Positions 139 to 36,700 of a stretch of DNA of 39,216 nucleotides are shown here, piece by piece; the stretch's first letter is position 1; each line of letters begins with the position of its first letter. The stretch is from a virus (lineage: Duplodnaviria > Caudoviricetes), in the IMG/VR virus record IMGVR_UViG_3300010376_000813, positions 1 through 39,216 of that record. The stretch is one strand, 5' to 3'. The position numbers and the translations under genes are program-made. Under the pieces are notes generated by a model. The model made no database searches. It saw only the letters and a list, made by a program, of their open reading frames with translations, and was not told the DNA's origin.

Positions 139-602
139 CTGCTTACGAATATCTTGTGAAATCTGTTCGGGAATGCAGTACTGATTCTTGCCTGATCTGG
201 CCTTACCAAACTGACCGTGATGGATATGGACGATTGCGCATGCCTATGGCCGTTGCTGGGAAGCGGGTAAAAGTGGCCGCACATCGGTTGGCCTATAAAA
301 TTGTGAATGGCAATTGGCCCAAGAATGAAGGAACGCATAGTTGTGACAATCCTTCGTGCTTCAATCCACGGCACATTAAAGATGAAACAAATGCGATGAA
401 CCAAGCTCAGAAGGCAGAACGCGGAAGGTCTTTGCGTGGATCTATGCAGCATGATGCGAAATTAACTGATGACCTTGTTAGACAGGCACGCGCTGAATAT
501 GTGCCAAGGCGCAATGGGTTTCATAAGCTCGCTAAAAAATATGGTGTATCCAAACATGCGATGCGGCTAGCTGTTTCAAAGCTGTCTTGGAGACATGTGT
601 GA
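135..602 (+). CDS. Free-standing HNH homing-type endonuclease with C-terminal HTH
   Basis: CLIW..DGYG..AHRLAY..HSCDNPSCFNPRH..N motif plus KLT...LAKKYGVS HTH tail. SD AAGGAG at 125-130 favours ATG 135 over 114. More AT-rich than the core genes. Confidence 0.9.
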   Translation: MTAYEYLVKSVRECSTDSCLIWPYQTDRDGYGRLRMPMAVAGKRVKVAAHRLAYKIVNGNWPKNEGTHSCDNPSCFNPRHIKDETNAMNQAQKAERGRSLRGSMQHDAKLTDDLVRQARAEYVPRRNGFHKLAKKYGVSKHAMRLAVSKLSWRHV

Positions 603-823
603 CCCCCACCGTCCTCAACCGCTTCTTCAACCGCTACGCCCTTACCCCCAGCGAGCGCCGCCTCGTGAAGCTGCTCCTCGACGGCATCACCCCGATCGAA
701 ATCTCCCACCTCCTCAACCACAGCCATCGCACGATCAAAACCCAGCTCTCGAGAATCTACAAGAAAACTTCCCAAAAAGGCGCTCTGAAGCTCGTCACCT
801 CGATCTACAAGGACACCCGATGA
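599..823 (+). CDS. Stand-alone LuxR/GerE-type HTH protein
   Basis: LTPSERRLVKLLLDGITPIEISHLLNHSHRTIKTQLSRIYKK matches the LuxR HTH pattern. GTG 599 overlaps the upstream TGA. Confidence 0.85.
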   Translation: MTPTVLNRFFNRYALTPSERRLVKLLLDGITPIEISHLLNHSHRTIKTQLSRIYKKTSQKGALKLVTSIYKDTR

Positions 824-1800: not shown

Positions 1801-2363
1801 AATTCTCGATCATCACCCCCACGATCCTCCGCCCCTCCCTGCTCAAGTGCTCTGAGTCAATCGATCGTCAGACGCATCAGGATTGGGAACACATCATCAT
1901 CAGTGATCGCGGCTTCGAAGAAATCCTGATGGACATCGCCCATCCTCGCCGCAAAATCCTCGTCTGCGAACCCGAGCATCACAACTTCGGCAACACCTGC
2001 CGACACAACGGCTGGACTCACGCGACTGGCGATTACTGCCTCTACCTCGACGATGACAATTTTCTCTCGCACCCTCTCGCGCTCTCCTCAATCGACACTG
2101 TCCTCTCGCGCGATCAGCCGAAATGGGCTATCTTCCCCATTCTCCGCTTCGGCCACCCCTTCTTCTCCGATCCCCCCGGCCTCTGCCACACCGATTCCGC
2201 GAACATGACCATCCAGCGCGAAATCGCCCAATGGCCCAACCGCGACGAATACACCCTTGACGGGATATTCTGCGATTATCTCAAGGAGCATTATCCCTAT
2301 CTCGCCTATTCCCAAGTCCCCCCGATAGCCGTCGTTCCCGTTCAAGGAAAGGGAGAGAGATGA
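1797..2363 (+). CDS. GT2-family glycosyltransferase
   Basis: FSIITPT..SIDRQTHQDWEHIIISD..RHNGWTHATGDYCLYLDDD (DxD motif). ATGA-coupled. Confidence 0.9.
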   Translation: MKFSIITPTILRPSLLKCSESIDRQTHQDWEHIIISDRGFEEILMDIAHPRRKILVCEPEHHNFGNTCRHNGWTHATGDYCLYLDDDNFLSHPLALSSIDTVLSRDQPKWAIFPILRFGHPFFSDPPGLCHTDSANMTIQREIAQWPNRDEYTLDGIFCDYLKEHYPYLAYSQVPPIAVVPVQGKGER

Positions 2364-3061
2364 AAGACCTGATCGTTATCACCGCAGCGAGCGGCAATTA
2401 CGGCACCCTCCCCCTCTACCGCGACCAACTCTCTCGCGCTCAAATCGACTTTTATGTTGACGACATCTCCGGCAAATATATCCCCCCGCTCGGCGGCAAC
2501 TTCGCGATCAAGCTCGAATCGATGCGCAGACTCTCTCAACAATTCTCCACCTATCAGCGCATTGTCTTCACCGACGCCTTCGATGTGACGTTCTGGGGTA
2601 GCAGGGACGATCTTATTGCGAAGATTCCTCTCGATTACGTGTTGTGGGGCGCAGAAAAAAACTGCTACCCCAACCACCACCTCGCCGAAGTAATCCCCAA
2701 CTGGTGCCCCGCGCGCTTCGCCAACGGCGGCCTGCTCTGCGGCACTCCCCAATCCATGCTCGACTGGTGCGACCGCGCCGAATCCCACCCCCTCTTCCAC
2801 CCCAACATCCTCGACCAGCAATGGCTCAACCAGATGCTGGCGGAGAACTCTCCCCTCGTCACCTGCGACCACGTTTCCAAAATCTTCTTCTGTCTATTCG
2901 GCGGCTATCCTGAGCTTGAGTTCGAGCGCGGCCTTCCCGTCAACGCCCTCTACAACACTCACCCCCACTTCATCCACGCGAACGGCAAGTGGAGCGCCGA
3001 CGAGATGTGGCGGAGGTATGAGGAGAGCATCGCAGATCACGCCGCTGAGAGCTATCAATGA
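2360..3061 (+). CDS. Glycosyltransferase resembling the PLOD/LH3 GT domain
   Basis: Motif order IVFTDAFDV, AEKNCYP, FANGGLLCG, DQQW, DHVSKIF, HANG parallels the procollagen lysyl hydroxylase GT domain. Confidence 0.75.
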   Translation: MKDLIVITAASGNYGTLPLYRDQLSRAQIDFYVDDISGKYIPPLGGNFAIKLESMRRLSQQFSTYQRIVFTDAFDVTFWGSRDDLIAKIPLDYVLWGAEKNCYPNHHLAEVIPNWCPARFANGGLLCGTPQSMLDWCDRAESHPLFHPNILDQQWLNQMLAENSPLVTCDHVSKIFFCLFGGYPELEFERGLPVNALYNTHPHFIHANGKWSADEMWRRYEESIADHAAESYQ

Positions 3062-3732
3062 TCCACTCCCTGAACACAGACTACGAACGCGCAGAGCGCG
3101 ACACGCTGATCTCTCTCGCCAAGCCCGGTGACATACTCTACGATATCGGCGCTTATGTGGGATGGTACAGCGTGGAGTTTGCGAATAGAGTCCCTCACAG
3201 CCGAGTGTATGCGTTCGAGCCCATTCCCGAAATTCGCCGCGAATTCATCCGCAACACATCCCACCTGAACAACATCACCAGCTATCCAATGGGACTCTCA
3301 GACCATTCGGGCATTGAGAATTTCTATATATCCGAAAAAGAACCCGGCACCGCATCCCTCCAGCCTCTTGAGGAGGATAGATTCGGCCCCACATTCTCCA
3401 TCCCAGCCCCGGTGACCACAATCGACGAACTCCCGATCCCAGCGCCCAATATGATCAAGATCGATGTCGAGGGCGCGGAGCTGCTTGTGTTGAAAGGCGC
3501 GCGGGAAACTCTCGCCGCTCATCATCCCATTATCCTGTGCGAGATGCTCAGGAAGTGGATGAGGAGATTTGGACATCATCCGAACGACTTGATCGATTAT
3601 CTCTCCAGCTATGGCTACAAGTGCTACACCTTGAAGCTGGAGCCATTCGCGCGCATGTCCGACGACATCGAGGAGCGAAACTTCTTCTTTATCCATCCCG
3701 ACAGAGCGGAGAGCCTAAATGCGACTCTTTAA
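3058..3732 (+). CDS. FkbM-family SAM methyltransferase
   Basis: YDIGAYVGWYS, VYAFEP, IKIDVEGAELLVLKGA, ILCE motifs. Confidence 0.92.
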   Translation: MIHSLNTDYERAERDTLISLAKPGDILYDIGAYVGWYSVEFANRVPHSRVYAFEPIPEIRREFIRNTSHLNNITSYPMGLSDHSGIENFYISEKEPGTASLQPLEEDRFGPTFSIPAPVTTIDELPIPAPNMIKIDVEGAELLVLKGARETLAAHHPIILCEMLRKWMRRFGHHPNDLIDYLSSYGYKCYTLKLEPFARMSDDIEERNFFFIHPDRAESLNATL

Positions 3733-4393
3733 GCCCAAGCCCGACTTCCACGCCTACATCCCCTTCGTCAACCGGCCTGACATCACCAGCGCGTGCGTTG
3801 ACTCGATCTCCTCTCTCTGGCCCAACCTGACAATCCTCGACAACTCCCCCGAAGGCCTCGGCGGGAGATGTCCGTGCGCCGTCTACCGCCCTCCCGTCCC
3901 CCTCACCTTCAGCCAATCCCAGAACTTCTTCTTCAGCGACGCGAGAAAGAGGGGAGCGCGCTTCATGGTATGGCTCCACAACGACGTGATCGTGCCTGCT
4001 GGAGTCTTCCCTGAGCTGCTCGACTTCGCCCGATCGATGTTCACCCACAACCCTCGCTGGGGCGTCATCCACACCTACTACGACATTATCTCAGCCGTTA
4101 ACCTTGAAGCTGCAGAGAGCGTCAGTGGCTACGACATCAATATCCGCGCCTACAAGAGCGATCAGGACTTCTATCGGCGCCTCGACCTCTCTGGCTGGGA
4201 GCGCCTTGAGTCGCATATCAAGACCGAAGAGATCAAATCAGCCCACGTCGGCTCCCAGACTATTGCATCCGATCCCAAACTGCGCTATCTTAATGGCATT
4301 ATCCAAACTCTCGACGCCGCCTACTACATGAAGAAGTGGGGAGGGGACGCGGGGATGGAGAGGTTCTTTGAGCCGTTCAATGGAGAGTGCTAG
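3719..4393 (+). CDS. GT2-like (GT-A fold) glycosyltransferase
   Basis: IPFVNR..ILDNS..WLHNDV..SDQDFYRR..HVGSQT..YYMKKWGG pattern. Confidence 0.8.
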   Translation: MRLFKPKPDFHAYIPFVNRPDITSACVDSISSLWPNLTILDNSPEGLGGRCPCAVYRPPVPLTFSQSQNFFFSDARKRGARFMVWLHNDVIVPAGVFPELLDFARSMFTHNPRWGVIHTYYDIISAVNLEAAESVSGYDINIRAYKSDQDFYRRLDLSGWERLESHIKTEEIKSAHVGSQTIASDPKLRYLNGIIQTLDAAYYMKKWGGDAGMERFFEPFNGEC

Positions 4394-6299: not shown

Positions 6300-8450
6300 A
6301 TGTACTCCTTCGACAAAGTCGGCGAGAAGTGCGAACGTTTCAAACATCGTTACGGCTGGAGCCTCCAGCCCCATTCCGTCGAAGAAGTAGACGAGTTCAA
6401 CCGTAAGCTCAAAGCCCTTCAAGTCCTCGACAACAAGGATGGCTGGGTCATCCGCGATCAGGACATCTCCCCCGCCGCCCTCCGCTTCATCCAAAACGAG
6501 CGCGCCTTATGCGCCTTTTCCGCCGAATATTTCCTCACCCGCTACTTCTGGCTGACCGAAACCGACATCCAGCACTTCTCCTTCCGCTCCGGCCAGCGCG
6601 CCTTCTTCACTGTTCTCCAAGAACTTGAATCCGAAGGCGTCTCTCAGGACATCCAATGCCTTAAGGCGCGCAAACAAGGCATCTCCACCCTGGTCGAAGG
6701 CCTGATGACCCACGCCTCGCTGATGATTCCCGGTACGCGCTGCTCGATCGGCTCAGCGGACGACCAGAAAACCCAAGTCATGATGGCGATGATGTACGGG
6801 GCGCTGAACCACATTCCCTGGTGGCTGACCCCGACCCAAACCCGCGACCGGCGCTCTGGACGCGCCCTGCTCGAATTCCAGCACATCGGCTCGATGATCG
6901 TCGTTCAGCACGGCGCGATGCGAGGAGGGATTGGACAGGGCACGACACCAAACAAGATCCACTTATCTGAGGTCTCGCAATATACCAATCCCGTCGAGCA
7001 AATCGAAGAAGGCCTCTTCAAAGCCGTCCCCACCACTCCCGACACTCTAATGGTTCTCGAATCGACCGGCGAAGGAAACACCGGCTGGTGGGCCGAGCAA
7101 TGGCGCGAGAACAAAGAGAAATATTGGCAGGGCCGCGCACGAATGCTCCCCCTCTTCCTCCCATGGTTCATGACGCCCGAACTCTACCCGACCCCGAACT
7201 GGATTCAGAAATTCCCCTTCCCCGAAAGCTGGAAGCGCGGCGAGACGCGCGAAGTCCAGACCATGATCGACAAGTGCGAACTCTATGTCCGCTCTACCGA
7301 GATGCTCTCAAAAATCCTCGGCAAAAACTGGCGTCTCCCCGACGAGCAAGTCTGGTATTGGCAATTCCACTACGAAGACTCGAAATCGAGAAGGACTGAC
7401 AAATCCTGGCTCCGTCAAATGCCCTGCGACGACTTCGAAGCCCTCATCGGCGAGCACGATTCCGTCTACTCCCGCGAGACCATCGCTGAGATCAACACCA
7501 CTCGCGATCGCCCAACCCGCATCTACGGCATCCTCGGCGGCGGCATCAACGAGAAACACGATCCCTCGCCGATGGATGTCGATATGAGCGCCGAGCGCAT
7601 CCCTGTGCGCTGGACGATCCCCTCTACCAACACCAGCGTCGAGTGGATGCTGATGCCGCTCAAGGGCGAGCCCGAGTCCCAAAAGTTCGACCCTCACAAA
7701 AAGCTCATCGTCTACCTCCCTCCCCACTACGGCTCGGTCTACGCAATCTCGATCGACCCCGGGTCCGGCGTGGGCGGCGACCGCACCGTGATCACCGTGA
7801 CCAAGCGCGGCACCAAGGGCTTCCCCGACATCCAATGTGCCGAGTTCGCCTCCGACGACATCGACAATGTCGAGGTCTTCGCTTATGTCGCCTGCATCGC
7901 CGCCTACTACGGCCAGTTCTACGACGAAGGCGAGACGATCCTGATGGCGATCGAGCAGAAGCGCAAATACGGCGACTCCTGCTACCACGCCCTCAAGCTG
8001 CACGGCTTCAAGAACTGGTACAAGTTCCGGATGTTCGACAAGAAAACCCTCCGCCCCAAGCCCTCCGCCAACCCGCGCGAAGGCTGGTTCACGAACGAGT
8101 GGTCTAGGCCGATGCTTTTGAATGCGTTCAAATTCGCCGTGGACAACAAGTGGTACAAGGTCAACTCGAAGTGGCTTACCCAAGAACTCGAAGCGCATGA
8201 GCAGCGCACCACGGAAACCGGCAAAACCCGCGCCGACCACGCGCGCGGCAAGCACGACGATCGCATCTTCGCCGCCGCCATCGGCTACTTCATCCAGCAT
8301 GATCTCGATGTGCTGATGGAGCGCGAGCATACCCGCTGCCACACTCCCCGGCCTGAGGAAGAGTGGATCGTCAACACCGACCACTACCAGGGAATGGAAA
8401 TCCGCAACATCTCCATCGAAAAGTTTCAGGAGCTTTATGCAGAGCGCTAA
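6300..8450 (+). CDS. terL: Terminase large subunit
   Basis: Walker A LKARKQGIST, Walker B IHLSEV, coupling motif VLESTGEG, RNase H-like ISIDPGSGVGGD, and C-terminal HDDRIFA. Confidence 0.95.
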   Translation: MYSFDKVGEKCERFKHRYGWSLQPHSVEEVDEFNRKLKALQVLDNKDGWVIRDQDISPAALRFIQNERALCAFSAEYFLTRYFWLTETDIQHFSFRSGQRAFFTVLQELESEGVSQDIQCLKARKQGISTLVEGLMTHASLMIPGTRCSIGSADDQKTQVMMAMMYGALNHIPWWLTPTQTRDRRSGRALLEFQHIGSMIVVQHGAMRGGIGQGTTPNKIHLSEVSQYTNPVEQIEEGLFKAVPTTPDTLMVLESTGEGNTGWWAEQWRENKEKYWQGRARMLPLFLPWFMTPELYPTPNWIQKFPFPESWKRGETREVQTMIDKCELYVRSTEMLSKILGKNWRLPDEQVWYWQFHYEDSKSRRTDKSWLRQMPCDDFEALIGEHDSVYSRETIAEINTTRDRPTRIYGILGGGINEKHDPSPMDVDMSAERIPVRWTIPSTNTSVEWMLMPLKGEPESQKFDPHKKLIVYLPPHYGSVYAISIDPGSGVGGDRTVITVTKRGTKGFPDIQCAEFASDDIDNVEVFAYVACIAAYYGQFYDEGETILMAIEQKRKYGDSCYHALKLHGFKNWYKFRMFDKKTLRPKPSANPREGWFTNEWSRPMLLNAFKFAVDNKWYKVNSKWLTQELEAHEQRTTETGKTRADHARGKHDDRIFAAAIGYFIQHDLDVLMEREHTRCHTPRPEEEWIVNTDHYQGMEIRNISIEKFQELYAER

Positions 8451-8946: not shown

Positions 8947-11060
8947 TGCCTCCCTCCCGCAGCCTCTCTCCCGGCATGTCGCACTGGCAGCCCCCGCCCA
9001 ACGAAGGCTCCGAGAACAAAGCCCAGCGTCAGGACTGGCTTCAGCAAGTCGTCTCAGTCGGTGAAGCCTACAACGCCTCCCTCACTTCCTCTCGCGACCT
9101 TCCACGGGGGATCTCGATGATCTCAGGCAGGGTCGCCGACGCACCCAATCAAGCGAGATCAAACCTCAAGATCCCCCGCGAGAAGCGAGTCCTGCGCGAA
9201 GTAGTCGCCGGAATCTCCGACATTCGCACCGTCGATGCCTACTCCTCCGACAACGCCTCCTACTCCCCCTTCCTCGCGATGCTCAACAAAATCTGGAAGG
9301 CGGTCTACTTCGAATCCAAATTCCAGCCCAAATTCAAGCGCGCGGTCCAGTGGGCTTCCGTCGGCGGCTATTCCTACATGTCGCCCGTCTACCGCAATCT
9401 CCAGCTCAACTCCCGCAGCAAGAAGCGTATTGACTTCGATGTCTTCTCATCCCAAGACTGCCTCCCCTTCCAGCTCCCAGACGACAACAACGTCCAAGGC
9501 GCATACGCATGGACAAGAATCGTCTTCATGCCTCTTTACGAGGGTCATGCGAAGTTTCCCAAATTCCAAGCCCGCCTCAAGCCGATCGCGCGCCGGAGAT
9601 ATTCAGGAAATATCTCGAAGGATCGAATCGCTCTCGCTGAACGCTTCCGCAACGATATGCGAACCGCCTCGGGTCAAGCCTATGGAGGAAACTGGCAAGA
9701 GCAGATGATGGAGTTCCGCTACACCACCGTCCGCGATCTCTCCATCAACGAAACCAAAAAGCCAAAGCCGATGGGCGACCCCGGAGCCTCATGGAGCTAC
9801 GTGGTCCCCTTTGTCGGCCAGCGCATCCCCACGGGCCAATGGACCCTTTCTCGCGACACCGGCGCAAAGGTCCGCGAAACCCGCGCCGCCGAAGAAGAAG
9901 ATTGCGTTCTCTATCCCAATCTCCGCTTGATGATTAGTCAAACTGGCCTGCAGGAACCAATCTACGATGGCCCCTTCTGGGACTGGCACGGGATGCATCC
10001 TCTAGTCCGGATCTCGATGGACGAGTGGCCCTGGGAACCCGGCTACTCCCTGATGGAAGACATCGACTCTCTCGGCCAGACTCGCCAGAAATTCATGCGC
10101 GGCCTTGATCAAACCGCTGCCCAGCGGTTTGACCCCGCCTTCATGTACGACAAAAACGGCGGCCTGAACCGCAAGACGATGGAGCAATTCGATCCCTACG
10201 AGGAGCGCGGGAGACTTGGCATCGACGGCCCAGTCGATGAGAAAACAATCCGCACTGCGCTCCCCGAAGACCTGATGTCCATCCCCGAATGGGGCTTCGC
10301 ATGGGCCAAGAAGCTCGAAGACGACGAGGATTATCTCCTCGGCAACAACGCAATGAACAATCTCGCGCGGGCCAAGATCGCAGGCGCAGACGACGCCCTT
10401 CTGAAAGCGATGGAGGAGGCTGGCCCGATCGTCAAGGACATCTCGAACTCCTGTAACGATCCCGTCTCCGACATCATGATGATGACTCTCTCCGACGTTC
10501 TCCAATACTACCCAACAGGCCGTATCATGCAATACGTCGGACCCAACGGCGTCGCACGCGAAGTCTTCGACCTCGACCCTGAAACCCTCATCCCCTCTCA
10601 CATCCTCGGCGAAGACACCAAGGAGAAATCCATCTACACCCGGATGCAGCGCTCTCAAAACTTCTGCTCCGCTCTCCACGCAACCATCGCTCCCGGCGAA
10701 CTCCACGGCGTCGTCCAGACCGCGCATAAACTCCTCCTGATCCAGATGCAGCGCGGCGGATACATGATCGACTCCGAGACCATCGCGAAGGCCGCCGATG
10801 TTCCCAACTGGGGCCATCTCGACGGCAACACCGTGATGGAGAAGTGGCAGACTGAGCAGAAAATCAAACTCGAATTCGCCGTCCAGATGAAGGAACTCGA
10901 AACTGCCCTCGTTCCGCAAGGCCCATCCGCACCTCCAACCCCAATTGGAGTCGGCGGGAACAAGGGCGCGCCGGGCCGACCGCCATCCGGCAACAAGCCC
11001 GCTCACATGGAGACGAAAGGAAGCGCCGCAGGCCCGCGCGCGACGATTAGTGAATCATGA
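8946..11060 (+). CDS. Portal protein (large, podovirus/P22-like size)
   Basis: 704 aa downstream of TerL. HPLV..PW..GYSLMEDI..Q..R pattern resembles P22-type portals; Pro/Gly-rich tail. Confidence 0.8.
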   Translation: MPPSRSLSPGMSHWQPPPNEGSENKAQRQDWLQQVVSVGEAYNASLTSSRDLPRGISMISGRVADAPNQARSNLKIPREKRVLREVVAGISDIRTVDAYSSDNASYSPFLAMLNKIWKAVYFESKFQPKFKRAVQWASVGGYSYMSPVYRNLQLNSRSKKRIDFDVFSSQDCLPFQLPDDNNVQGAYAWTRIVFMPLYEGHAKFPKFQARLKPIARRRYSGNISKDRIALAERFRNDMRTASGQAYGGNWQEQMMEFRYTTVRDLSINETKKPKPMGDPGASWSYVVPFVGQRIPTGQWTLSRDTGAKVRETRAAEEEDCVLYPNLRLMISQTGLQEPIYDGPFWDWHGMHPLVRISMDEWPWEPGYSLMEDIDSLGQTRQKFMRGLDQTAAQRFDPAFMYDKNGGLNRKTMEQFDPYEERGRLGIDGPVDEKTIRTALPEDLMSIPEWGFAWAKKLEDDEDYLLGNNAMNNLARAKIAGADDALLKAMEEAGPIVKDISNSCNDPVSDIMMMTLSDVLQYYPTGRIMQYVGPNGVAREVFDLDPETLIPSHILGEDTKEKSIYTRMQRSQNFCSALHATIAPGELHGVVQTAHKLLLIQMQRGGYMIDSETIAKAADVPNWGHLDGNTVMEKWQTEQKIKLEFAVQMKELETALVPQGPSAPPTPIGVGGNKGAPGRPPSGNKPAHMETKGSAAGPRATISES

Positions 11061-11281
11061 ATCCTCCCCCATTCACTCCAGAATTCAACGTGAAGATGGA
11101 AGGCCACGCCTTCGCCCACTTCACTGGAGAGCGTGATCCCGAGACCATCAAGAAGCTCTACGCTTACCTTCGCGCCAACAACTGGAAGGGCTGTTTGAAG
11201 ATCCATTTCCCCGGTAATGGAGGCGTTACCGACGTTATGTTTGAAGAAATAAAGAAAATGACTGTTGACAAACAGACTTAA
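11057..11281 (+). CDS. Small hypothetical protein (possibly DUF2292/YezD-like fold)
   Basis: ATGA-coupled to portal. Helix followed by WKGCLKIHFPGNGGVTDVMFEE beta pattern. Confidence 0.6.
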   Translation: MNPPPFTPEFNVKMEGHAFAHFTGERDPETIKKLYAYLRANNWKGCLKIHFPGNGGVTDVMFEEIKKMTVDKQT

Positions 11282-11398
11282 CAGCAGTAACACTTTTTCT
11301 TAACGACTCTAACGAGATTCTGACCTCTTCTCTCTCCCTTGGAGAAATGAGACATGGCTCAAGCCTAATCAGCTTGGGCCATTTCCATTTTGGCCCAA
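11251..11398 (+). promoter_or_regulatory. Putative late promoter and structured leader (copy 1) ahead of the head operon
   Basis: AAAGAAAA 11251, TTGACA 11265, TAACACT 11288 (imperfect -10), GAGATTCT 11314, bulged hairpin 11329-11352, hairpin 11354-11382. Parallels 31881-32009. Confidence 0.65.
11354..11391 (+). terminator. Terminator-like hairpin in the leader
   Basis: ATGGCTCAAGC/GCTTGGGCCAT 11-bp stem (one G-U) followed by an interrupted T tract, TTCCATTTT. Confidence 0.55.
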
Positions 11399-11415: not shown

Positions 11416-11568
11416 ATGGCGCACCACAAGACGCACGAGCACAAGGACGGCCATCACAAGGATGGTCACAAGGACGGGAAGCACAACATGTCCAAAGCCG
11501 GAAAGCTGAAGATCCACGGCGGCTTCAAGGCGATGGAGCATGAGAAGCACGCTGAGAGGAAGAAGTAA
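11416..11568 (+). CDS. Small His/Lys-rich protein (50 aa)
   Basis: AAGGAG SD before ATG 11416; MAHHKTHEHKDGHHKDGHKDGKH... Confidence 0.75.
   Translation: MAHHKTHEHKDGHHKDGHKDGKHNMSKAGKLKIHGGFKAMEHEKHAERKK
11440..11478 (+). repeat. Three HKDG-encoding units (CACAAGGAYGGN)
   Basis: cacaaggacggc-cat-cacaaggatggt-cacaaggacggg read directly. Confidence 0.8.
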
Positions 11569-11574
11569 CTCTCA

Positions 11575-11850
11575 ATGGCCTCTCCAGCGATCAGTCCCGG
11601 TGCGGCAGGCATAGGCGGCCCTCCTCCCCAGCAGGGCGGAGGCGCTCAGCCCACTCCCGCACCGACCGCGCAACCCACATCCGCAGTCGCGCAACTGGTC
11701 GCTCAAATCGCTGGTGGTCTCGACATGCTCCAGCAAATCTTCCCTCCGTCTGCTCCGAAGGTGCAGGAGATGCAGAAATCTCTTCTCGACATCGGCTCCC
11801 TGATGGGAGCGACTCAATCTCCCCAGCAATCTCCGGCACCCCCGATCTAA
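11575..11850 (+). CDS. Pro/Gln-rich small protein of the head module
   Basis: 91 aa; low-complexity ends around an amphipathic helical core; precedes the scaffold. Confidence 0.7.
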   Translation: MASPAISPGAAGIGGPPPQQGGGAQPTPAPTAQPTSAVAQLVAQIAGGLDMLQQIFPPSAPKVQEMQKSLLDIGSLMGATQSPQQSPAPPI

Positions 11851-11865
11851 GGAGCGTTTACGACT

Positions 11866-12669
11866 ATGGACATCAAAGTCTTTCTCAAATCGAAGAACTT
11901 CTCGGATGAGCAGATTACGCAGCTCCTCACGAATGATGCCTTCTCTCCCATGCTTGAAGGATTGATCAACGAGGCTGAGAGCGGGAAGACTGCCCTCGCC
12001 AACGCTCAGCAGATCGAGACCAATCTCAAAGCTTGGCAGCAGAACGAAATCATTCCCTACGTTCGCAAAGCCGATGAGCGCGCCGCAGCCGCAGAAGGCC
12101 GAGTCTCTCAACTTCAAACTCACATGAAGTCGATGAAGGATGCTGGATACGACATCCCCGACGCCTATCTCGCCACTTCTGCTGAGCCCGTGAAGAAAGT
12201 CGAACCCCTTCCCTCGAATGGAATCTCCCGCGAAGACTTCGACAAGCGCGGAATGGAGATCGCCGAGACCAACATGGCCCTCGTCTCGCTCTCGAATCGT
12301 CATCGCAAACTAACCGGCGACGAACTCGACCTCGACACCGAATACACCGACTTCAAGGCCAACCGCCGCCCCGACGAGAACCTCCGCTCCTACGTCGCCC
12401 GCAAGTACGATCACGCTGGTCTCCAGACCAAGCGCGACACGGAGAAGCACCAAAAGGAACTCGACGACTACGCGGCTGGAAAAGTCGCCGCAGCGCAAAA
12501 AGACTGGGCCGAGAAGAATGGCTCGAACGGCGAAACCCGCAACCCCCGCGCCTCGCGCTGGGATGCTGTCAAGACGGACGAAAATCGCAACAAGCTCTGG
12601 CAGACCGCGCAAGGCCGCGCACAAGCGACCAAGGACCGGCTCGCCAAGTATCAAGCTATGGTGCAGTAG
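11866..12669 (+). CDS. Putative capsid scaffolding protein
   Basis: Charged, helical 267-aa protein immediately upstream of the capsid gene; AAGGAG SD. Confidence 0.7.
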   Translation: MDIKVFLKSKNFSDEQITQLLTNDAFSPMLEGLINEAESGKTALANAQQIETNLKAWQQNEIIPYVRKADERAAAAEGRVSQLQTHMKSMKDAGYDIPDAYLATSAEPVKKVEPLPSNGISREDFDKRGMEIAETNMALVSLSNRHRKLTGDELDLDTEYTDFKANRRPDENLRSYVARKYDHAGLQTKRDTEKHQKELDDYAAGKVAAAQKDWAEKNGSNGETRNPRASRWDAVKTDENRNKLWQTAQGRAQATKDRLAKYQAMVQ

Positions 12670-12708
12670 CGCAGTTAGACCTCTTGGTTTTGATGAAGGA
12701 GACCTTCG

Positions 12709-13887
12709 ATGACAGACCCGACATATAATGGCGACCTGCAGGCCTCAACACTCGATGATCTGCTCGCTGATGCCGCCTACGACAACTTCTTTGTCAAAAC
12801 CGCTCTTCAACAGCACATGCGGGCCATCGGCGCGATCGACCCATTCGGCGGCGGCGTGCTGATGCGCGAGCCCTTCATCATGGGCTCTCCGGATGCTGGA
12901 GCCGCAGCCCCTGGCACCAACTTCAATGTCGTCCACGTTCAGCAGCTAGCCGACCTCGCCTTCACGCCGCGCCTCTACACCTCGCGCGATATGCTGGAGA
13001 CCTTCTCTCTCAGCGTGCAGAACAAGGGGCCGAACGCGCGAATCGAACTCACCGATCTCTACTTCCGCAATGGTGTCGCAGCGATCTCGACCAACGTCGA
13101 AGTCGATCTCTACTGGCACGGACAGGCCTCGATCGCGAATCAAGTCGCCAACTCCCGCACCAACAACGTGAATGGCTTCGCCGAAGCCCTGAACGATGGC
13201 GCGAACAACTCATGGAACGGCGACTACTTCGTCAACTACGGCAACCAAGTCCGTAACGGCGCAGTCTCCTCCTCCCTGAACTCAGTCCCCTTCTTCTTCG
13301 GCAACGCCGACGGAACCGCAGGCTCGATCTCCGTCCGCGCCCTGATCCAGTTCCTGATCCGTCAGCGCAAGTTCACCGATGGCCGGACGCCGGAGATCAC
13401 CATCACGACTCCCAACGGCTGGGGATACATCCTCTCCGCTCTCCAAGCTCAGCAGCAGTTCACCACGAACTGGACGATGAAGAGCTTGATGAGCGTTCCA
13501 GACGTTGAGGGAATCAGCTTCATGGGCACCGTCATCTACGACGACATCCTGACCCCCGGCGCAACCTGGGGCAAGGACTTCCCGACCGCCTACATCGGCA
13601 CCTCGAACCTCACCTCCACCTTCACCTCCTCCTCAACAGCAACTGGCGCGACCTCCGTCTCCCAGCTCCCCGCCTCGACCACGATCACAGTCGGCGAGAC
13701 GATCTGGGCCTTGACCGGCAGCGCGTGGAAGTATCGCCCCACCGACAATCCCGACTTCCTCTTCGGACGCCGCCAGAACGAGGTCTACAACAACAACACG
13801 AACGATGCTCTCTTGATCAACCTCGCGCTCAACGCCTACACACCGGCACCGAGAGAGTCTGGACAGGGTTACGGCTTTAATGGCTAA
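12709..13887 (+). CDS. Major capsid protein (putative HK97 fold)
   Basis: 392 aa after the scaffold; strong codon bias; DNFF..GG..MREP N-terminus and GISFMGTVIYDD typical of phage coat proteins. Confidence 0.85.
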   Translation: MTDPTYNGDLQASTLDDLLADAAYDNFFVKTALQQHMRAIGAIDPFGGGVLMREPFIMGSPDAGAAAPGTNFNVVHVQQLADLAFTPRLYTSRDMLETFSLSVQNKGPNARIELTDLYFRNGVAAISTNVEVDLYWHGQASIANQVANSRTNNVNGFAEALNDGANNSWNGDYFVNYGNQVRNGAVSSSLNSVPFFFGNADGTAGSISVRALIQFLIRQRKFTDGRTPEITITTPNGWGYILSALQAQQQFTTNWTMKSLMSVPDVEGISFMGTVIYDDILTPGATWGKDFPTAYIGTSNLTSTFTSSSTATGATSVSQLPASTTITVGETIWALTGSAWKYRPTDNPDFLFGRRQNEVYNNNTNDALLINLALNAYTPAPRESGQGYGFNG

Positions 13888-13915
13888 TCTGTTGATTTAA
13901 TTGGAGTTAGCTGAA

Positions 13916-14428
13916 ATGAAAAAAGCATTTCAAAAACATCTGGATGGAATGGCGGGAACGTTCGCAGTTTGCGAACAGTTGTGTCGCTATGGACATACTC
14001 CTTTCATGCCTTCGGTTGATTTTGGAGTGGATGTCATGCTCGACAATGGCTTGAAGATTCAGGTCAAGAGCGGGCGATGCCGCAATCATCCCGGTTACTC
14101 CAATGGGGTATATGCATTCGACATCCGTAGGGGCTGGACAAGAGTAAAAGGCGAGATTGTTGCACATCCCAAAGACCGTGACTACCGCGATAGTTGTGAC
14201 TTTGTGATCTTCTTTGGGGTAGATGAGAGACGATTTTTCATCATTCCAAGTGTAGAAATCAATAGCCACGCTATCTGGATTCCTCGACGAGGCAACCGAG
14301 AATTCAAGCGCGCTAAATCCATTGCGAAGTCAATGATGAAGTTTGAAGACGCATGGCACCTGCTCGATGTAAACGCTACTTTGAGCGATCTGGAACTGAA
14401 GGAGATTGAATCATGTCAAGAACAGTAG
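13916..14428 (+). CDS. Free-standing PD-(D/E)XK homing-type endonuclease
   Basis: PSVDFGVDVMLDNGLKIQVKS and DFVIFFG..FFIIPS motifs; AT-rich. GGAG at 13903 supports ATG 13916 (the track start is TTG 13901). Confidence 0.8.
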   Translation: MKKAFQKHLDGMAGTFAVCEQLCRYGHTPFMPSVDFGVDVMLDNGLKIQVKSGRCRNHPGYSNGVYAFDIRRGWTRVKGEIVAHPKDRDYRDSCDFVIFFGVDERRFFIIPSVEINSHAIWIPRRGNREFKRAKSIAKSMMKFEDAWHLLDVNATLSDLELKEIESCQEQ

Positions 14429-15422: not shown

Positions 15423-15460
15423 TTGGGCAGGGCAGCGATGACTGCTCTGCCCGATTTTTT
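15423..15460 (+). terminator. Intrinsic terminator after the capsid genes
   Basis: GGGCAGGGCAG-CGATGA-CTGCTCTGCCC stem-loop followed by T6. Confidence 0.85.
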
Positions 15461-15471
15461 AGGAGTCTCAT

Positions 15472-16487: not shown

Positions 16488-16988
16488 CTAAGTGATACTC
16501 GCAAATTCGCCGTGGAACTTTTTAACCGCTTCGCAATAAGCTGCGTGTGCTTCTTCGGGCGTGCTGAAGTCCTTCAGAAAAACTACCTTTCTGTTGAGAA
16601 CAACTTTGGCTCTCCACTTCAAACTGCGTTTAGGCTTCCAGATTCCCTTGAAGCCACTGCTATTACATTTCTTCATGCGTTGATTACGAATCTGCTCTGC
16701 GTGTGTGGCAATGCGAAGATTTTCGTCAAGATTGTTCAAGGTGTCGTGGTCTATGTGATCACCTGTACGCGGATCGCCTTTTTTCAGGCCAAGCAGATAG
16801 CGATGCAGATATACAACACACCGCTTATTGTTTTCATCGCGCATTTTGGTTGCTGCATAAAAGGATTGGGCGAGTTTCATCCACACTGCGTACCATTTGA
16901 ATCCCTTAATCTCTTTGTGCCTATGTGGACTGATCCTCGTAACTTGTCCCTGCGTCAAAGGAATTTCGATGTAGTCTGTAGTGGGCAT
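16488..16988 (-). CDS. HNH endonuclease with C-terminal AP2 domain (inverted insertion)
   Basis: IPLTQG..KWYA..YLHRYLLG..DHIDHDTLNNLDENLR..N..SSGFKG..WRAKV..F.TPEEAHAAY. AGGAG SD 7 nt before ATG 16988. Confidence 0.92.
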   Translation of the reverse strand: MPTTDYIEIPLTQGQVTRISPHRHKEIKGFKWYAVWMKLAQSFYAATKMRDENNKRCVVYLHRYLLGLKKGDPRTGDHIDHDTLNNLDENLRIATHAEQIRNQRMKKCNSSGFKGIWKPKRSLKWRAKVVLNRKVVFLKDFSTPEEAHAAYCEAVKKFHGEFASIT

Positions 16989-17050
16989 CCTCACACTCCT
17001 AATGTGGGTCACTTTGGTGGACTGTTTCAGCAGTCGATGCCCTTAGCATA
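16989..17050 (-). promoter_or_regulatory. Putative -10 box and two-hairpin leader of the HNH-AP2 gene
   Basis: Minus strand: TATGCT, 9 nt, GACTG-CTGAAA-CAGTC, then CACATT-AGG-AGTGTG enclosing the SD. Confidence 0.55.
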
Positions 17051-31005: not shown

Positions 31006-31931
31006 TCCTCACCTCCGAAGACTTCCACAACCACGACTTCTGCCCCCGCTTCCGCCAGTACGACTCCCGCTACGCCCGCCTGCGCATCTCCCTCCCTCGC
31101 GCCCTGTCCGAAACCCTCGATTACGCCATCGCGAAATCCGACCCCTCCCTCGCCCGCCCCTACCTGATGTCCCTCGCCACCAATCCCGGCCTGGACCTAA
31201 CCGCGCGCAACCTCTACCGCATCGTCATCCATCACGCGAGCCTTCTCGAACTCCTCGCAACCTACATCCTCGCGGTCTCAACCGTCACCCAGCCCGAGCC
31301 GATCTCAATGCCTTGGGGCGAATACCGCTCCTGCCCGATCCTGCGCGATGGCCGCCTCCGCCGTATCCTTCTCGTCGATCGCTGGACTGCCGACGCCGAA
31401 GCCCGCGAGAGCTGGTCGTGGCGCACCGCCGCCGAGACCGCGATCACAGGCCGCGCGATGCTTTTGAACATCTTCCTCATCGGGCGCGCGAACGACTCCG
31501 GCATCCGCACCTCACCGTGGACGATGGGCTATAAGCATCCCGTTAATGGAGTGCTCAGGATCAAGCGGCATAATGATGAATATGATCAGAAGCGCGAATT
31601 TAAGGACACCTGGGAGAAGGTCTATCGCGAGAACACCGATCACAAGCCGATGCACTGGCTGGGTATGATGCAATCCGACGACGCCTTCAAGGGATGGATT
31701 CAATCCACCACCATCGACACCCCGCCGAATCGCGCGGAGATTCTCGATCAGCTCGCGGAGAGGGTGCGTGAGATTCACGCTAACCATCCGCGCCAAAACC
31801 GCGCCTCCTGCTTCAAGCTCCGCCCCTGCGCCTTCAACCCCGCCTGCCTTACCGACCAGTCCCCCGCTGCGATGGGCTGGAAAGAAAAGGAGATAGACGT
31901 TCCCCTCGCCTCGATGTTAAGCTGTCCGTAA
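31002..31931 (+). CDS. Cas4/AddB-like (PD-(D/E)XK_1) protein, catalytic motif apparently degenerate
   Basis: N-terminal CPR plus C-terminal C-x5-C-x5-C (CFKLRPCAFNPAC), as in Fe-S staple nucleases. ATGA-coupled start at 31002. Confidence 0.55.
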   Translation: MILTSEDFHNHDFCPRFRQYDSRYARLRISLPRALSETLDYAIAKSDPSLARPYLMSLATNPGLDLTARNLYRIVIHHASLLELLATYILAVSTVTQPEPISMPWGEYRSCPILRDGRLRRILLVDRWTADAEARESWSWRTAAETAITGRAMLLNIFLIGRANDSGIRTSPWTMGYKHPVNGVLRIKRHNDEYDQKREFKDTWEKVYRENTDHKPMHWLGMMQSDDAFKGWIQSTTIDTPPNRAEILDQLAERVREIHANHPRQNRASCFKLRPCAFNPACLTDQSPAAMGWKEKEIDVPLASMLSCP

Positions 31932-32009
31932 CTATCATGAATTGAGATTCTCCGCCGCTCCACCGGGAGATCCGGCGAATGGCTCATGACTTCGGTCATG
32001 GGCCTTTTT
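31881..32009 (+). promoter_or_regulatory. Putative late promoter and structured leader (copy 2) ahead of the fibre operon
   Basis: AAAGAAAA 31881, TAGACG 31894, TGnTAAGCT 31915-31923, GAGATTCT 31944, bulged hairpin 31953-31977, terminator 31981-32009. Confidence 0.65.
31981..32009 (+). terminator. Intrinsic terminator with cUUCGg tetraloop
   Basis: GGCTCATGAC-TTCG-GTCATGGGCC followed by T5. Confidence 0.88.
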
Positions 32010-32029: not shown

Positions 32030-35000
32030 ATGAAGTGGATAAACCGAATTCTGCTGACTTTCCTCCTGCTCTCTCCTCTTACGGCTCTCGGCCAGACGGA
32101 CGGATTCAATGGCTTCTGCACTACCGGCAATGTGAAAGTTACGACCTCAGGGCTGACCTCCACAACTACGGTTCAGCAATCCTATCCAAAGTGTACGGTG
32201 ACGGTTTATCTCACCGGCACGCTGACCAAAGCGACCATCTTCAAGGACGCGCTCGGTACTGCGCTCGGCAATCCTTTCACCGCCAACACCGACGGCTCAT
32301 GGCTGTTCTTCGCCGCCGATAACCAAGGCTTCGATGTAACGATGAGCGGAGGAGTTGCGCCAAATGTCTTCGCGATTCCCTTTACCCTGACCGATCTCAA
32401 GGTGGGCTCAGGAGGAGGTACGACTGCTGGTTGTCAGGGCACTCTTCCCGGCGACAATACCTCCACAAATTGCGGCTTCGGGAACCTCGTGGCCAACACC
32501 ACTACTCCCCCGGCCAACACAAGCAGCTTCGGCTATTCGTCGATCGACACGAACGCCTCGACAAACATCGTTGCGGTCGGGAATACTAACGCGAACAATA
32601 TCAGCACGTTCTCAGGCGACGTGGTAGCGATTGGCGACAACAATGCTCACTACCTCACTGGAGCGGGGACTGATGTTGCTGTCGGATATATCAACTTCGT
32701 CGGGACAGTTTCGAACCCCTGCCGCCTTTTCAACGTAGTCGCGGTGGGGCAGCAGAACATCAATCCTTGCCCACAGGGGACTGCAGGTGCGAATACCGGA
32801 GATATCGTAGCGGTAGGCGATAACAACTTCTCGTTCAACGGAGTCACGGAGCCCAGTTACCGGCTGGGAAATGTGGTCGCTGTCGGAGACAACAATTTCA
32901 TCCCTGCCACTACCAGCAATGCCATCGGTGCGATTGACACTCTGTGCATGGGCAACAATTCCTGCGCGAACATCAGGGCAACGCTGAATACAGATCTTGT
33001 CGGGATCGGAGACGCATCGCTGACCGGATATGCCGGGAATTCTTCGAATACAACTCCGTGGAATGACATCGTTGCCATCGGAGACGCCTCGGGAATTAAT
33101 CTGCCAAATACTGCCGGATTCATTGTCGGCATCGGCCTTTCCTCTGCTGTCGGCTGTCAGTCAGGCAACTCCAGTTGTACTCCCGGCTCGGCCACAATGC
33201 AGTACATCGTCGGCATCGGAGAAAGCTCCGGCGTGAACCTCCAGGGAACCGACGTTGTGGCTATCGGCGACAGCGCAATGACGGGATTCTTCGCTTTGTC
33301 GAACCCGACTCCCTTCACCGGCCACGACGCGATTGCGATTGGCAACCATGCCTGCACCTCTCTGACGACCGGAACAGACAACATCTGCATCGGCGACTAT
33401 GCCGGGTCAATTGGCTATGACGGAGTAAGCACCAATGGGAATGCGAATAAGACCGGCATCCGCAACGTCTGGATCGGCGACACTGCGGGGCCAAACACAA
33501 CCTCCCAGTTAAACAACACCATCGCCATCGGATACCAAGCATACGTCACTGCCTCGAACCAGATCACTCTTGGCAACTCCTCGAATACCCTGACGATCCC
33601 AGGACTTGCAGGCGTAGGCACCTATTGCCTCAAGGTGGACACGAGCGGCAACGTCACCAACACCGGAGCAGCTTGCGCAACTGCATCCTCTCCGCTGACC
33701 ACCAAAGGCGATATCTGGGTTTACTCATCGGTCGATACCAGACTGCCAGTAGGAACGAATGGACAGGTTCTCAGCGCTAATTCTGCTCAGACTACAGGGC
33801 TTCAGTGGATCTCCGCGTTGACAAATCCCATGACCACTCTAGGCGACATTATCTACGGCGGAGCGGCAGGCGCGGCAACAAGACTGGCAGGCAATACCAC
33901 TGCCTCAACTCTCTGCCTCGTACAGACTGGCACTGGATCAATCTCCGCTGCTCCTTCATGGTCATCCTGCGCAGGCTCAACCTCGACTGCTCTCTCTTCA
34001 GTCAGCGCAGCCTCGACTAACGCGACGATCGCGAACGGGAATAATCCCATCGTATGGAACTGGGCGCAGACTACCAACTCTCAGACTGCGTTCACATTCG
34101 GCGAGACCTCCGCTGCTACGGGGACTAGCGATATCGAGCTAGCAGTTACGACCGCTACTGGCTCAACCGCCATTCCAGTCGTTATCACGGAATCGCTCAA
34201 CTCTGCTCAGACTATTCCGGCGCTCGAAGTTCTCCCGACATGGAATACAACTGGGGTGGTGGATGCGGCGATCCTCGTCAATGCGACTAACACCGCATCA
34301 GGCGCGGCGTCAAAGCTGCTCGACCTTCAAGTCGGAGGGTCATCGAAGTTCTCAGTAGACAAGTCCGGCAATGTCCTTCAGGCAGGAACGCTGAACTCAA
34401 CCTCCGTCGGTGGAATCACTGTCAGCGGAACTCCCTCTGCGAATCAAGTCCTAACCGCGACTTCATCGAGCGCCGCGAATTGGCAAGCGCCGCCGGTTAC
34501 GTCGGTATCAAACTCCGACTCGACGCTCACGATCTCGCCCACCACCGGAGCGGTAGTCGCCTCAATCAACCTCGCTCACGGCAACACATGGTCAGCAACG
34601 CAGACTTTCAACTCCGTCACCCTAAGCTCGATCACCGGCTCCACGCAATGCCTTCAGGTCAACGCGTCGGGAGCGGTGAGCGGAACCGGAGCGGTCTGCG
34701 GATCGGGCGGAGGCGGAGCAACCGCATGGAGCAGCCTTACCAACCCCACGACCGCGCTCACCCTGTCAATGGCCGCGAACTCCTCGACCTTCACCTACAA
34801 CGCCGCAACCGGCGCCGGAGACCTCTACAAACTCACCGACACCACCGGGAATACCGGGACGGGGAGAATCCTCCGAGTCACCACGGCCTCGGGATCGACC
34901 GAGAATCCCTTCCAGGCTGATGCGAATGGGGTGGGATGGCAAGTCACCTCCAGCGGAACTCTTCAGACGGTGGGCTTCACCGGAGCTGGAGAATTAGTTC

Positions 35001-36700
35001 TTGGCGAAGGCTCTGCGCCTGCGGGCTCAGCGGGCAATGACCTGATCTGGGGAGATGCCACGACTCACCGGCTGAGGCTGAATCCGAACAATGCTGGGGC
35101 GGTGAGTCTTGGGGGAATTGCAACCGCTGGCAGTGCTGGAGATTCCATAGTCCTCACTGCCAACGGAGTAGATTACGTAGATTCTAAAACTGCCACTGTG
35201 TTTGCCGCATCGGGCGATACCTCTTGTGCAACAGACTCAGCCGCACTTCAAGCGGGAATTACAGCCGCGCAAACTTCTGGAATCCCAATGCAACTACAGC
35301 CGGGAATATTCTATGCAGACAACTTGAGCGTTACCGGCCCAATCGTCTTTCGAGGCTCAGGAGGACACGCGACGATTATCAAGAATTGCAGCACTACCAA
35401 CAACGTCTTCACCCTCGCCTATCACACTTCGGCAGGCGGCGACCCATCCCAATCCGAAGCCATATTCTCAGATTTCGATGTCACGATGAAGAGTGGCGTT
35501 AATCCGACTGCGGGATATGGATTTCAGATCAGCAACGGAGGGACTGGATATCTCTCTGGCTTGCACCTTCAAGCCGTAAGCATGAGCGGCATCTGGCAAC
35601 CATTCCTTCTTGGCACAGGAGTAATCACTAACTGGATAAAGGATTTATCTACCATCAATTGCGTAAGTAATATCGGCATTGAATACAACACCGTAAGCCC
35701 TGGAGGAGATTACTGGATCAGCGACTTGAATCTCCAGAATTGCTCTCTTCAGATCGATCAAGCCGATACAACGACTTTCAACAACCTGAAGATCAACGTC
35801 CCAGCATCAGGAACAGCGGTTAAGTTTACTCAGGCTGGTTTTACCTCAAGAGTGCGCTTTATCAATCCGTCTATCGAATCTACAAGTACTGCTTGCTACG
35901 ACTTCGGCACGGGATCGAACAGTCCTAGTCAAGTACAGATTGTGGGTGGCGGATGTGGACTCGGCGCAGGAGCGATGTTTGCTAACGTAGGGAATGCCGT
36001 TCTCTTGCAATACATAACCAACGATTACACGACTGCGGACGGCAATCCCGGTCCTGTGGCTTCGGGCTGGCTGTGGCCGACCATCAACGCCACAAGCCTA
36101 GTGTTGTCCAGCACCACGCTTGCCAGTTCCAGTATTACAAACAGCGATGCAGCAGGCACGGGCACGGTTGGCTATTCGCTTTCAGACGACAACATCAACG
36201 GCTCATTCCAGGGTTTCGGCCCCAACTTCATTCTAGACCCAACGCTGAAAAGCAAGATAGCTTTTGGTCCCAACAACACAACCGCTAACGGGCTAGTCCT
36301 CTTCGGCACCAGCGGAGCGGTATCGGGGAATACGAATACCATCGACTTCAGGCCGGGAGGATACGCCGGAGCTGCCCGGACCCTGATTCTCGACAAGAAC
36401 CAGATCGAGCAGTTGGCGATTACGAATATGCTGTCGCAGACCGTGGTGTCATCAGCAACAACCATTGCTCCCACGTCACAGGCATTCCATGTATCGGGAA
36501 CCACGACAATCCAGACCATTACTGCACCGACAGCATGTATCACGGCGGGGCAGATGTGCCAGATTACGATCATCCCGGATGGAATCTTTGCAACCAACAC
36601 CAGTGGGAACATTGCACTTGCCACAGCCGCAACGGTGGTCGGAAAGGCGCTGATTATGACCTACGACCCCGGCACAAGCAAGTGGTATCCGAGCTATTAG
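32030..36700 (+). CDS. Large tail fibre/tailspike (1556 aa) with N-terminal signal peptide
   Basis: GGAGG SD before ATG 32030; MKWINRILLTFLLLSPLTALG|Q; VTVYLTGT..ATIF..NPFTANTDG anchor-type domain; VAIG repeats; LTTKGDI..RLPVGTNGQVL fibre motifs; DSAALQAGI..PGIFY beta-helix entry. Confidence 0.8.
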   Translation: MKWINRILLTFLLLSPLTALGQTDGFNGFCTTGNVKVTTSGLTSTTTVQQSYPKCTVTVYLTGTLTKATIFKDALGTALGNPFTANTDGSWLFFAADNQGFDVTMSGGVAPNVFAIPFTLTDLKVGSGGGTTAGCQGTLPGDNTSTNCGFGNLVANTTTPPANTSSFGYSSIDTNASTNIVAVGNTNANNISTFSGDVVAIGDNNAHYLTGAGTDVAVGYINFVGTVSNPCRLFNVVAVGQQNINPCPQGTAGANTGDIVAVGDNNFSFNGVTEPSYRLGNVVAVGDNNFIPATTSNAIGAIDTLCMGNNSCANIRATLNTDLVGIGDASLTGYAGNSSNTTPWNDIVAIGDASGINLPNTAGFIVGIGLSSAVGCQSGNSSCTPGSATMQYIVGIGESSGVNLQGTDVVAIGDSAMTGFFALSNPTPFTGHDAIAIGNHACTSLTTGTDNICIGDYAGSIGYDGVSTNGNANKTGIRNVWIGDTAGPNTTSQLNNTIAIGYQAYVTASNQITLGNSSNTLTIPGLAGVGTYCLKVDTSGNVTNTGAACATASSPLTTKGDIWVYSSVDTRLPVGTNGQVLSANSAQTTGLQWISALTNPMTTLGDIIYGGAAGAATRLAGNTTASTLCLVQTGTGSISAAPSWSSCAGSTSTALSSVSAASTNATIANGNNPIVWNWAQTTNSQTAFTFGETSAATGTSDIELAVTTATGSTAIPVVITESLNSAQTIPALEVLPTWNTTGVVDAAILVNATNTASGAASKLLDLQVGGSSKFSVDKSGNVLQAGTLNSTSVGGITVSGTPSANQVLTATSSSAANWQAPPVTSVSNSDSTLTISPTTGAVVASINLAHGNTWSATQTFNSVTLSSITGSTQCLQVNASGAVSGTGAVCGSGGGGATAWSSLTNPTTALTLSMAANSSTFTYNAATGAGDLYKLTDTTGNTGTGRILRVTTASGSTENPFQADANGVGWQVTSSGTLQTVGFTGAGELVLGEGSAPAGSAGNDLIWGDATTHRLRLNPNNAGAVSLGGIATAGSAGDSIVLTANGVDYVDSKTATVFAASGDTSCATDSAALQAGITAAQTSGIPMQLQPGIFYADNLSVTGPIVFRGSGGHATIIKNCSTTNNVFTLAYHTSAGGDPSQSEAIFSDFDVTMKSGVNPTAGYGFQISNGGTGYLSGLHLQAVSMSGIWQPFLLGTGVITNWIKDLSTINCVSNIGIEYNTVSPGGDYWISDLNLQNCSLQIDQADTTTFNNLKINVPASGTAVKFTQAGFTSRVRFINPSIESTSTACYDFGTGSNSPSQVQIVGGGCGLGAGAMFANVGNAVLLQYITNDYTTADGNPGPVASGWLWPTINATSLVLSSTTLASSSITNSDAAGTGTVGYSLSDDNINGSFQGFGPNFILDPTLKSKIAFGPNNTTANGLVLFGTSGAVSGNTNTIDFRPGGYAGAARTLILDKNQIEQLAITNMLSQTVVSSATTIAPTSQAFHVSGTTTIQTITAPTACITAGQMCQITIIPDGIFATNTSGNIALATAATVVGKALIMTYDPGTSKWYPSY
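32500..33580 (+). repeat. Degenerate protein-level repeats (V/I-A/G-V/I-G-D-N/A), YadA-head/beta-roll-like
   Basis: IVAVGNTN, VVAIGDNN, IVAVGDNN, VVAVGDNN, LVGIGDAS, IVAIGDAS, VVAIGDSA, TIAIGYQA and others; boundaries approximate. Confidence 0.7.

Follow-up and report, generated by a model that had tools for sequence, protein, structure and literature searches.

The window analysed here, a linear virus record of 39,216 nucleotides that is 64% complete, contains two copies of an RNA element in which a promoter-like site is followed by a covarying hairpin that shares a strand with an intrinsic-terminator-like hairpin. Copy 1 precedes the head genes and copy 2 a large gene for a putative fibre protein. 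With a probability of roughly 0.55-0.57, we interpret the element as a protein-held antiterminator or anti-sequestering switch that opens head, fibre and lysis genes, the product of a small upstream gene, orf74, being the candidate ligand. By default, each copy would be OFF. A dimer of the orf74 protein, made from the upstream terminase-portal transcript, would bind the internal loop of the first hairpin, referred to here as the sensor, and hold the switch ON, opening the head operon at copy 1 and, in trans, the fibre/lysis operon at copy 2, with a packaging-first, virion-later cascade as the expected outcome. Satellite-like islands would make use of this trigger as well, as would some host toxin genes. 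Sequence comparison across homologous loci has shown the conservation and covariation of the sensor, its overlap with the terminator, the fixed adjacency of orf74 and the exchange of the terminator for a helix that hides the SD and AUG.

A relative of the window phage is located in a Terracidiphilus MAG and more diverged relatives are found in genomes of the same group, so that the host is probably an acidobacterium, and the element probably belongs to a family of uncultured soil phages with Acidobacteria as hosts. Apart from a weak terminase match at 6300-8450, the structural genes of the window are unannotated in Pfam and PHROG, and portal, scaffold and capsid are putative names given from size and gene order. 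The first gene behind copy 1, on the plus strand, encodes a 50-residue His/Lys-rich peptide (11416..11568) with homologues in the near clade. It is followed on the same strand by the head genes (11575..13887), which comprise a 91-residue gene, a scaffold-like gene (11866-12669) and a capsid-like gene (12709-13887), have a conserved order and give no family match in Pfam or PHROG. Behind copy 2, also on the plus strand, lie the large gene (32030..36700), which may encode a fibre or receptor-binding protein, and a gene with an Fn3-associated domain according to Pfam (36701-38632). Elsewhere in the window, an FkbM methyltransferase and glycosyltransferase gene cluster (595-4393) ahead of the packaging genes possibly serves DNA or virion modification, and a strong plain terminator without the sensor hairpin lies past the head-gene block (15423-15464). 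Endonuclease-like genes are inserted among the structural genes (16488-17012 on the minus strand, and 13901-14428), and also near the portal gene in two other loci (L128, L130).

A sensor hairpin overlapping a terminator

Every motif that the first-pass annotation had listed for a duplicated promoter-leader-terminator element was found in place in both copies. In copy 1, AAAGAAAA starts at 11251, and the promoter-like site (11265..11294, plus strand), which overlaps the end of orf74, combines TTGACA at 11265 with TAACACT at 11288 across a 17-nt spacer; a TTGACA-like box is also present in homologues, in many of them with a spacer of 19 nt. The sensor (11314..11360, plus strand) opens with GAGATTCT at 11314, 49 nt past the start of the -35 box, and the terminator-like hairpin (11354..11391, plus strand; stem 11354-11382), which opens with ATGGCTCA at 11354, ends in an interrupted U tract. 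The two hairpins have the seven nucleotides 11354-11360 in common. Past the U tract, the hexamer GGCCCA (11392..11397, plus strand), which is complementary to the 3' arm of the terminator and also occurs in L127, L131, L277 and L283, is a possible stabiliser of the read-through state. Copy 2, again on the plus strand, has a promoter-like site (31894..31923) with TAGACG at 31894 and TTAAGCT at 31917, the latter including a TG-extended TAAGCT at an 18-nt spacing. Its sensor (31944..31985) starts with GAGATTCT at 31944, 50 nt past the start of the -35 box, and ATGGCTCA at 31979 leads into the terminator (31979..32009; stem 31981-32004, UUCG loop, U5), the 5' arm of which is common to the sensor.

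The terminators of both copies ranked top in a terminator scan. For the promoters, the proposed boxes are in place in both copies, but the -10 box of copy 1 is a poor match and neither site passes a consensus scan. Among 27 leaders, 12 show a 19-nt spacer in their best -35/-10 fit (L126, L128, L131, L253, L255, L269, L277, L283 and L316-L319), plus one weak fit, which may mean a second, DNA-level control.

A profile built from 12 homologues, neither window copy being among them so that the chance test is non-circular, recovered copy 1 at E=8.5e-15 and copy 2 at E=7.5e-4, with the next match at E=2.5. Several features that had been taken as the core of the element turned out to lie outside it: AAAGAAAA falls inside the coding sequence of the upstream 74-residue gene and is present in 2 of 20 head loci, TAAC is present in 4 of 20, and the CTCC/GGAG stem and exact 3-nt bulge are free to differ in both their sequence and their size. 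The pairing overlooked at that stage is the conserved base of the hairpin, where GAGATTCT and ATGGCTC pair mutually and close the sensor. In the RNA, GAG-AUUC-UG pairs with CA-UGG-CUC, so that a GAG/CUC helix and the UG/CA pairs enclose a conserved 4x3 internal loop, AUUC/UGG, above which stands the variable, bulged upper stem.

The alignment shows a hairpin with a fixed base and an unconstrained upper stem, followed by the terminator; the letters of the internal loop are nearly invariant while the upper stem varies freely. The conserved core covers about 16 nt on a simple hairpin of 40-50 nt in total. Among 24 aligned sequences, the closing-helix pair 5-49 is A-U in 15, G-C in 8 and G-U in 1, pair 4-50 is G-C in 13 and A-U in 5, and the pair adjoining the internal loop is G-C in 24/24. 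Changes on both sides of the helix number 19, against 6.8 in shuffles and with 0 of 500 shuffles reaching that value, although this control ignores kinship, which can inflate the result; slid controls give 1-5. The base of the terminator is 93% paired with modest covariation (14 sequences; 9-10 of 500 in the control). Rfam gave no match in the window at gathering thresholds and none over either element at E<=10. With homologues and covariation both found, and with orthologous second copies in related phages, the earlier suggestion of a possibly undescribed cis-acting attenuation RNA gating two late operons is supported.

Since the strand AUGGCUC takes part in both helices, being the 3' strand of the sensor and the 5' arm of the terminator, the two folds are mutually exclusive, as in RAT. 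Folding was computed for 25 leaders (window copy 1 included, L316 left out). In the full leader RNA, the closing pair of the sensor is predicted to be absent in 25/25 and the shared C to be paired downstream in 23/25, and the OFF fold is favoured by 3.7-14 kcal/mol. In copy 2, the probability of the closing pair is 0.97 in the nascent RNA and 0.00 in the full leader. According to the predictions, the nascent RNA folds into the sensor first, and the terminator then displaces it unless it is stabilised, which corresponds to a default OFF state. Window copy 1 is a weak representative, its nascent sensor having P=0.04 and its U tract and -10 box being imperfect. L130 lacks a terminator, its loop measures 5 nt, and its OFF fold lies in another register.

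The same behaviour could be produced by a kinetic attenuator without any ligand, in which the sensor delays the terminator and a fixed read-through fraction tunes gene dosage. It would agree with the predicted early formation of the sensor, which is closed (P>0.5) in 19 of the 25 nascent RNAs, and with the U tracts, which are interrupted in several head loci. We nevertheless regard it as very unlikely, because it leaves unexplained the near-invariant loop letters across clades, the fixed upstream gene and the reuse of the sensor for SD sequestration.

orf74 and the spread of the element among phages

The gene orf74 (11057..11281, plus strand) encodes a 74-residue protein of an unannotated family which, on the basis of its homologues, predicted fold and adjacency to the sensor, is a candidate RNA-binding activator. 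The family has 109 homologues, with 35 matches among 50%-identity representatives, no Pfam or PHROG match and no zinc-finger pattern. It is barely basic (median net charge +1), and G45, G55 and G56 are invariant. The model has a beta-alpha-beta-beta order with a pLDDT of 85.9. A homodimer through strand 46-51 and the helix is predicted with a score of 0.46, against 0.00 for the best control; among solved pairs 20 of 30 reached the mark, among single chains 1 of 23, and the runs agree in at least 97% of contacts with a pLDDT of at least 72. Foldseek gave no match at E<=0.001, the best VIA match had Z 3.9 (rmsd 3.2, 47 aligned), and no clear match emerged from the fold searches and the Atlas. 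One protein (P0133) carries the annotation of an HNH with an orf74-like domain fused to it in frame.

A possible relationship to DUF2292/YezD (PF10055) gave no significant match. The arrangement of a helix, a Gly, a beta-hairpin and E-x-x-R in that family aligns almost without gaps with the C-terminal half of orf74, which differs by an extra N-terminal strand. The hhalign comparison is in register, but its probability of 0.1-0.2% (E 0.28-0.46) is not significant, and 0 of 39 members of the orf74 family match PF10055 above the Pfam cut-off. Separately, a true DUF2292 gene at L338:1400-1430 (minus strand) is followed, before the next gene, by a short hairpin (CC-A-CCAG..CTGG-A-GG) with a faint likeness to the L333 loop.

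In all 20 of the distinct head loci, the sensor is preceded at 21-76 nt by the stop codon of an orf74-family gene; 17 of these loci were reached by protein searches and three by the RNA alone (L301, L316, L341). The upstream ORF of L341 was judged by eye to be a family member before it went into the profile, so its E-value is circular. As the 20 loci come from related phages, synteny of the head module alone could give this adjacency. The orf74 alignment is too variable for a scan of loci. Among 40 capsid-gene loci, 22 extend to the upstream small gene and all 22 have the element behind it; 10 of the 18 others were checked and all are too short, one of them (L259) having a sensor at its edge. 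The platform following the sensor in the 20 head loci is a terminator in 15, translational in four and unclear in one (L130).

Outside the head loci, model R1 identified second copies, none of them in its training set, directly before the homologue of the 32030 gene in G003, G010 and G007, the last at E=0.1 for the whole genome. The fibre role of that gene is putative, and in G003, a complete relative, a minor tail protein and an endolysin are also encoded in the run of same-strand genes that copy 2 precedes. In a truncated and more distant prophage of G691, two copies with a variant loop stand ahead of membrane, peptidase-like and endolysin genes. Variant-loop switches (GAG-CAAC or CGAC) are seen in L490, L496 (G691:C1:308968, 311030), L494 and L491, and the pair in the truncated prophage stands 2 kb apart ahead of lysis-type genes. 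After filtering of 262 loci, every full promoter-sensor-terminator match came from this phage group. Loose pattern scans of viral contigs were discarded as giving mostly chance matches.

Four distant phages (L333-L336), reached solely through relatives of orf74, have the sensor right behind the orf74-family gene. Their orf74 proteins are 29-35% identical and their capsids about 45%. L334-L336 combine an AAG/CUU closing helix with the same internal loop, and L333 has a variant loop. None of the four has a terminator; instead, the shared strand pairs with the SD and AUG of the next gene. A second copy was not found in these four records. That one sensor drives two platforms is consistent with a ligand that keeps the hairpin closed, but not with put or Q.

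This bears on the first-pass annotation's analogies with lambda pR'/Q and HK022 put, which are not supported: the sensor overlaps the terminator, and the translational variants have no terminator. An RNA that binds RNA polymerase as put does, or an antiterminator of the Q kind loaded on DNA in the promoter-proximal region, would suit the layout of promoter, short leader and terminator ahead of late genes, and the 19-nt spacer, with the 12 of 27 promoter fits and the one weak fit given above, hints at a DNA-level factor. The put RNA needs no protein and is made of two stem-loops (PMC9378689), whereas here a single hairpin overlaps the terminator, and a mechanism acting on RNA polymerase could not open a translational platform. 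No Q- or N-like PHROG match was found among 53/61 unmatched G003 ORFs or 45 window ORFs, most of the proteins being unannotated, and we consider such a mechanism highly improbable.

The two-state switch could also respond to another phage protein, for instance the His/Lys-rich peptide encoded behind copy 1, which would then act by positive feedback. Basic peptides are known to bind RNA internal loops (lambda N, Tat, Rev), this one contains 13 Lys and Arg and 11 His in 50 residues, and a basic peptide follows the head-locus switch in both the near and the distant clades. The motif of the peptide, however, differs between clades that have an identical RNA loop, whereas orf74 keeps its three invariant glycines, and the peptide gene itself sits behind a default-OFF gate, all of which makes this choice of ligand unlikely.

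Copies outside phage late operons

The host-side searches covered 121 and 151 genomes around G007. In L339 (G027:C4:220753-220831), a promoter-sensor-terminator cassette with phage-like downstream sequence lies between Xre/ParS antitoxin and RES toxin genes (Pfam). The sensor occurs in 1 of 30 RES loci, L339 alone, and the nearest relatives (74% and 69% identical) have a gap of 26 nt in place of 182 nt, which indicates that the cassette is an insertion. In L347 and L349, which are identical in sequence, the sensor precedes a BrnT/BrnA pair and is of the type that hides the SD and AUG, with no terminator; the L349 leader (L349:1498-1601) has a canonical sensor. A related leader, again of the kind that hides the toxin SD and AUG, stands ahead of 4 of 30 BrnT loci, and those of L461, L462 and L465 have diverged sensors with non-canonical folding. 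The toxin frame of L349 ends at 73 codons, against 95-99 in these three. At L339 (RES, terminator) and at L347/L349 (BrnT, SD/AUG helix), a host toxin gene lies behind a predicted blocking structure that carries the phage sensor.

Two satellite-like islands have the sensor before scaffold-like genes (L342, L492). Satellite-like islands at L503:9000-15000 (G015:C3) and L502:9900-14900 (G705:C120) contain small HTH-like, 130-151-residue, scaffold-like and injection-like genes behind a variant switch, and in the stretches read they show no capsid gene or orf74. The sensor is also present at two unexplained places (L367, L491). Model R1 matches in L343-L346, L348, L350, L366 and L368-L373 are a terminator-type repeat or an ordinary terminator alone and were not counted. 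This repeat (GGCCCGAAT..ATTCGGGCC) is dispersed in host genomes (L343, L366, L368, L370, L373), in two cases between a promoter-like site and small genes that lack annotation.

A search of incomplete genomes, whose control recovered two known homologues, found orf74 in none of five toxin hosts and in none of five hosts of satellites or defective prophages. Copies in host genomes without a detectable orf74 homologue would be expected of a riboswitch, in which a small molecule or host factor signals the infection stage or cell state, and one sensor with interchangeable transcriptional and translational platforms, as seen here, is typical of riboswitches. The core, on the other hand, is small for such a sensor, with only its 16 or so nucleotides on a simple hairpin, and the element was not found before metabolic genes: 24 non-self R2 matches in 151 family genomes lacked leader context, most lying inside long open frames, as did the 7 inspected of 48 pattern matches in 401 phylum genomes, in searches of limited sensitivity that scored about 40 of about 1000 candidates per genome. 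A riboswitch therefore appears quite unlikely.

Relation to known switches and significance

An uncatalogued RNA with an unannotated candidate partner would be a variant of protein-dependent RNA switching, for which several precedents are described. BglG and SacY act on RAT, a stem-loop that is stabilised by the protein and rules out an intrinsic terminator with which it overlaps in part (PMC4347634). The present element is alike in that an antiterminator stem-loop overlaps the terminator, with exclusive folds and 7 nt in common in copy 1, and unlike in its loop sequence, in its stand-alone candidate of about 70 residues without a Pfam domain, in its position at phage late genes and in its additional translational platform. 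The domains of the BglG family are CAT and PRD, and no Pfam match to that family was found in the 45 ORFs of the 64% complete window or in the orf74 family.

In lactococcal phage bIL66, the 42-residue Orf1 binds an RNA structure in its own operon as well as the host abiD1 mRNA, whose RBS is sequestered, and activates translation of the host gene; its targets are weak AU-rich hairpins without a common sequence pattern (PMC2661086). Here, too, a structure is common to a phage operon and host toxin loci and the candidate protein is small, but the sensor covaries, is sequence-specific and would act on termination as well as translation, with RES and BrnT toxins as the host targets. The Com protein of phage Mu is small and binds a hairpin beside the start-codon-hiding helix of mom, exposing the translation signals (PMC6483171). 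Com is a zinc-finger protein acting on mom, whereas orf74 lacks such a pattern and the switch stands ahead of whole late operons, mostly acting through a terminator.

HK022 put (PMC9378689) and the Q-type BrrG (bioRxiv 10.1101/2024.11.20.624540) are reported to give read-through of terminators before phage genes by processive modification of RNA polymerase. Compared with put, which has about 70 nt in two stem-loops apart from its terminators, the element is one 40-50-nt hairpin overlapping its terminator, and this local overlap and the SD-hiding variant point to a switch at the RNA level. SD/AUG sequestration without a terminator in the four distant phages and the host BrnT locus argues against a mechanism that modifies RNA polymerase, and a put-type contact with the beta-prime zinc-binding domain is likewise disfavoured by the translational variant. 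No account of the element was found in the literature searched, and the catalogue in PMC10690425 gave no match in six supplement files, though the motif may be listed elsewhere in it.

In the textbook picture, late control in phages relies on DNA-binding activators, sigma factors or Q-type factors. If the protein-held switch is real, it would add a further route of late control, a RAT-like switch with a minimal stand-alone protein in transcriptional and translational forms, and would do so in phages of a major soil phylum from which hardly any viruses have been characterised. It also gives the unannotated orf74 family a testable role and offers a compact candidate ON-switch for synthetic biology. 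More tentatively, and at less than even odds, the element may be a portable late-gene switch, consisting of one small protein and one RNA loop and working through termination or translation, whose RNA half has been captured repeatedly by Acidobacteria and their phage satellites and wired to RES and BrnT toxins as well as to scaffold and injection genes of satellites. The toxin-linked copies would then be a phage trap, firing only once a phage switches on its virion genes, and possibly a second example, independent of the first, of the AbiD1 principle, in which a phage is sensed by borrowing its regulatory RNA.
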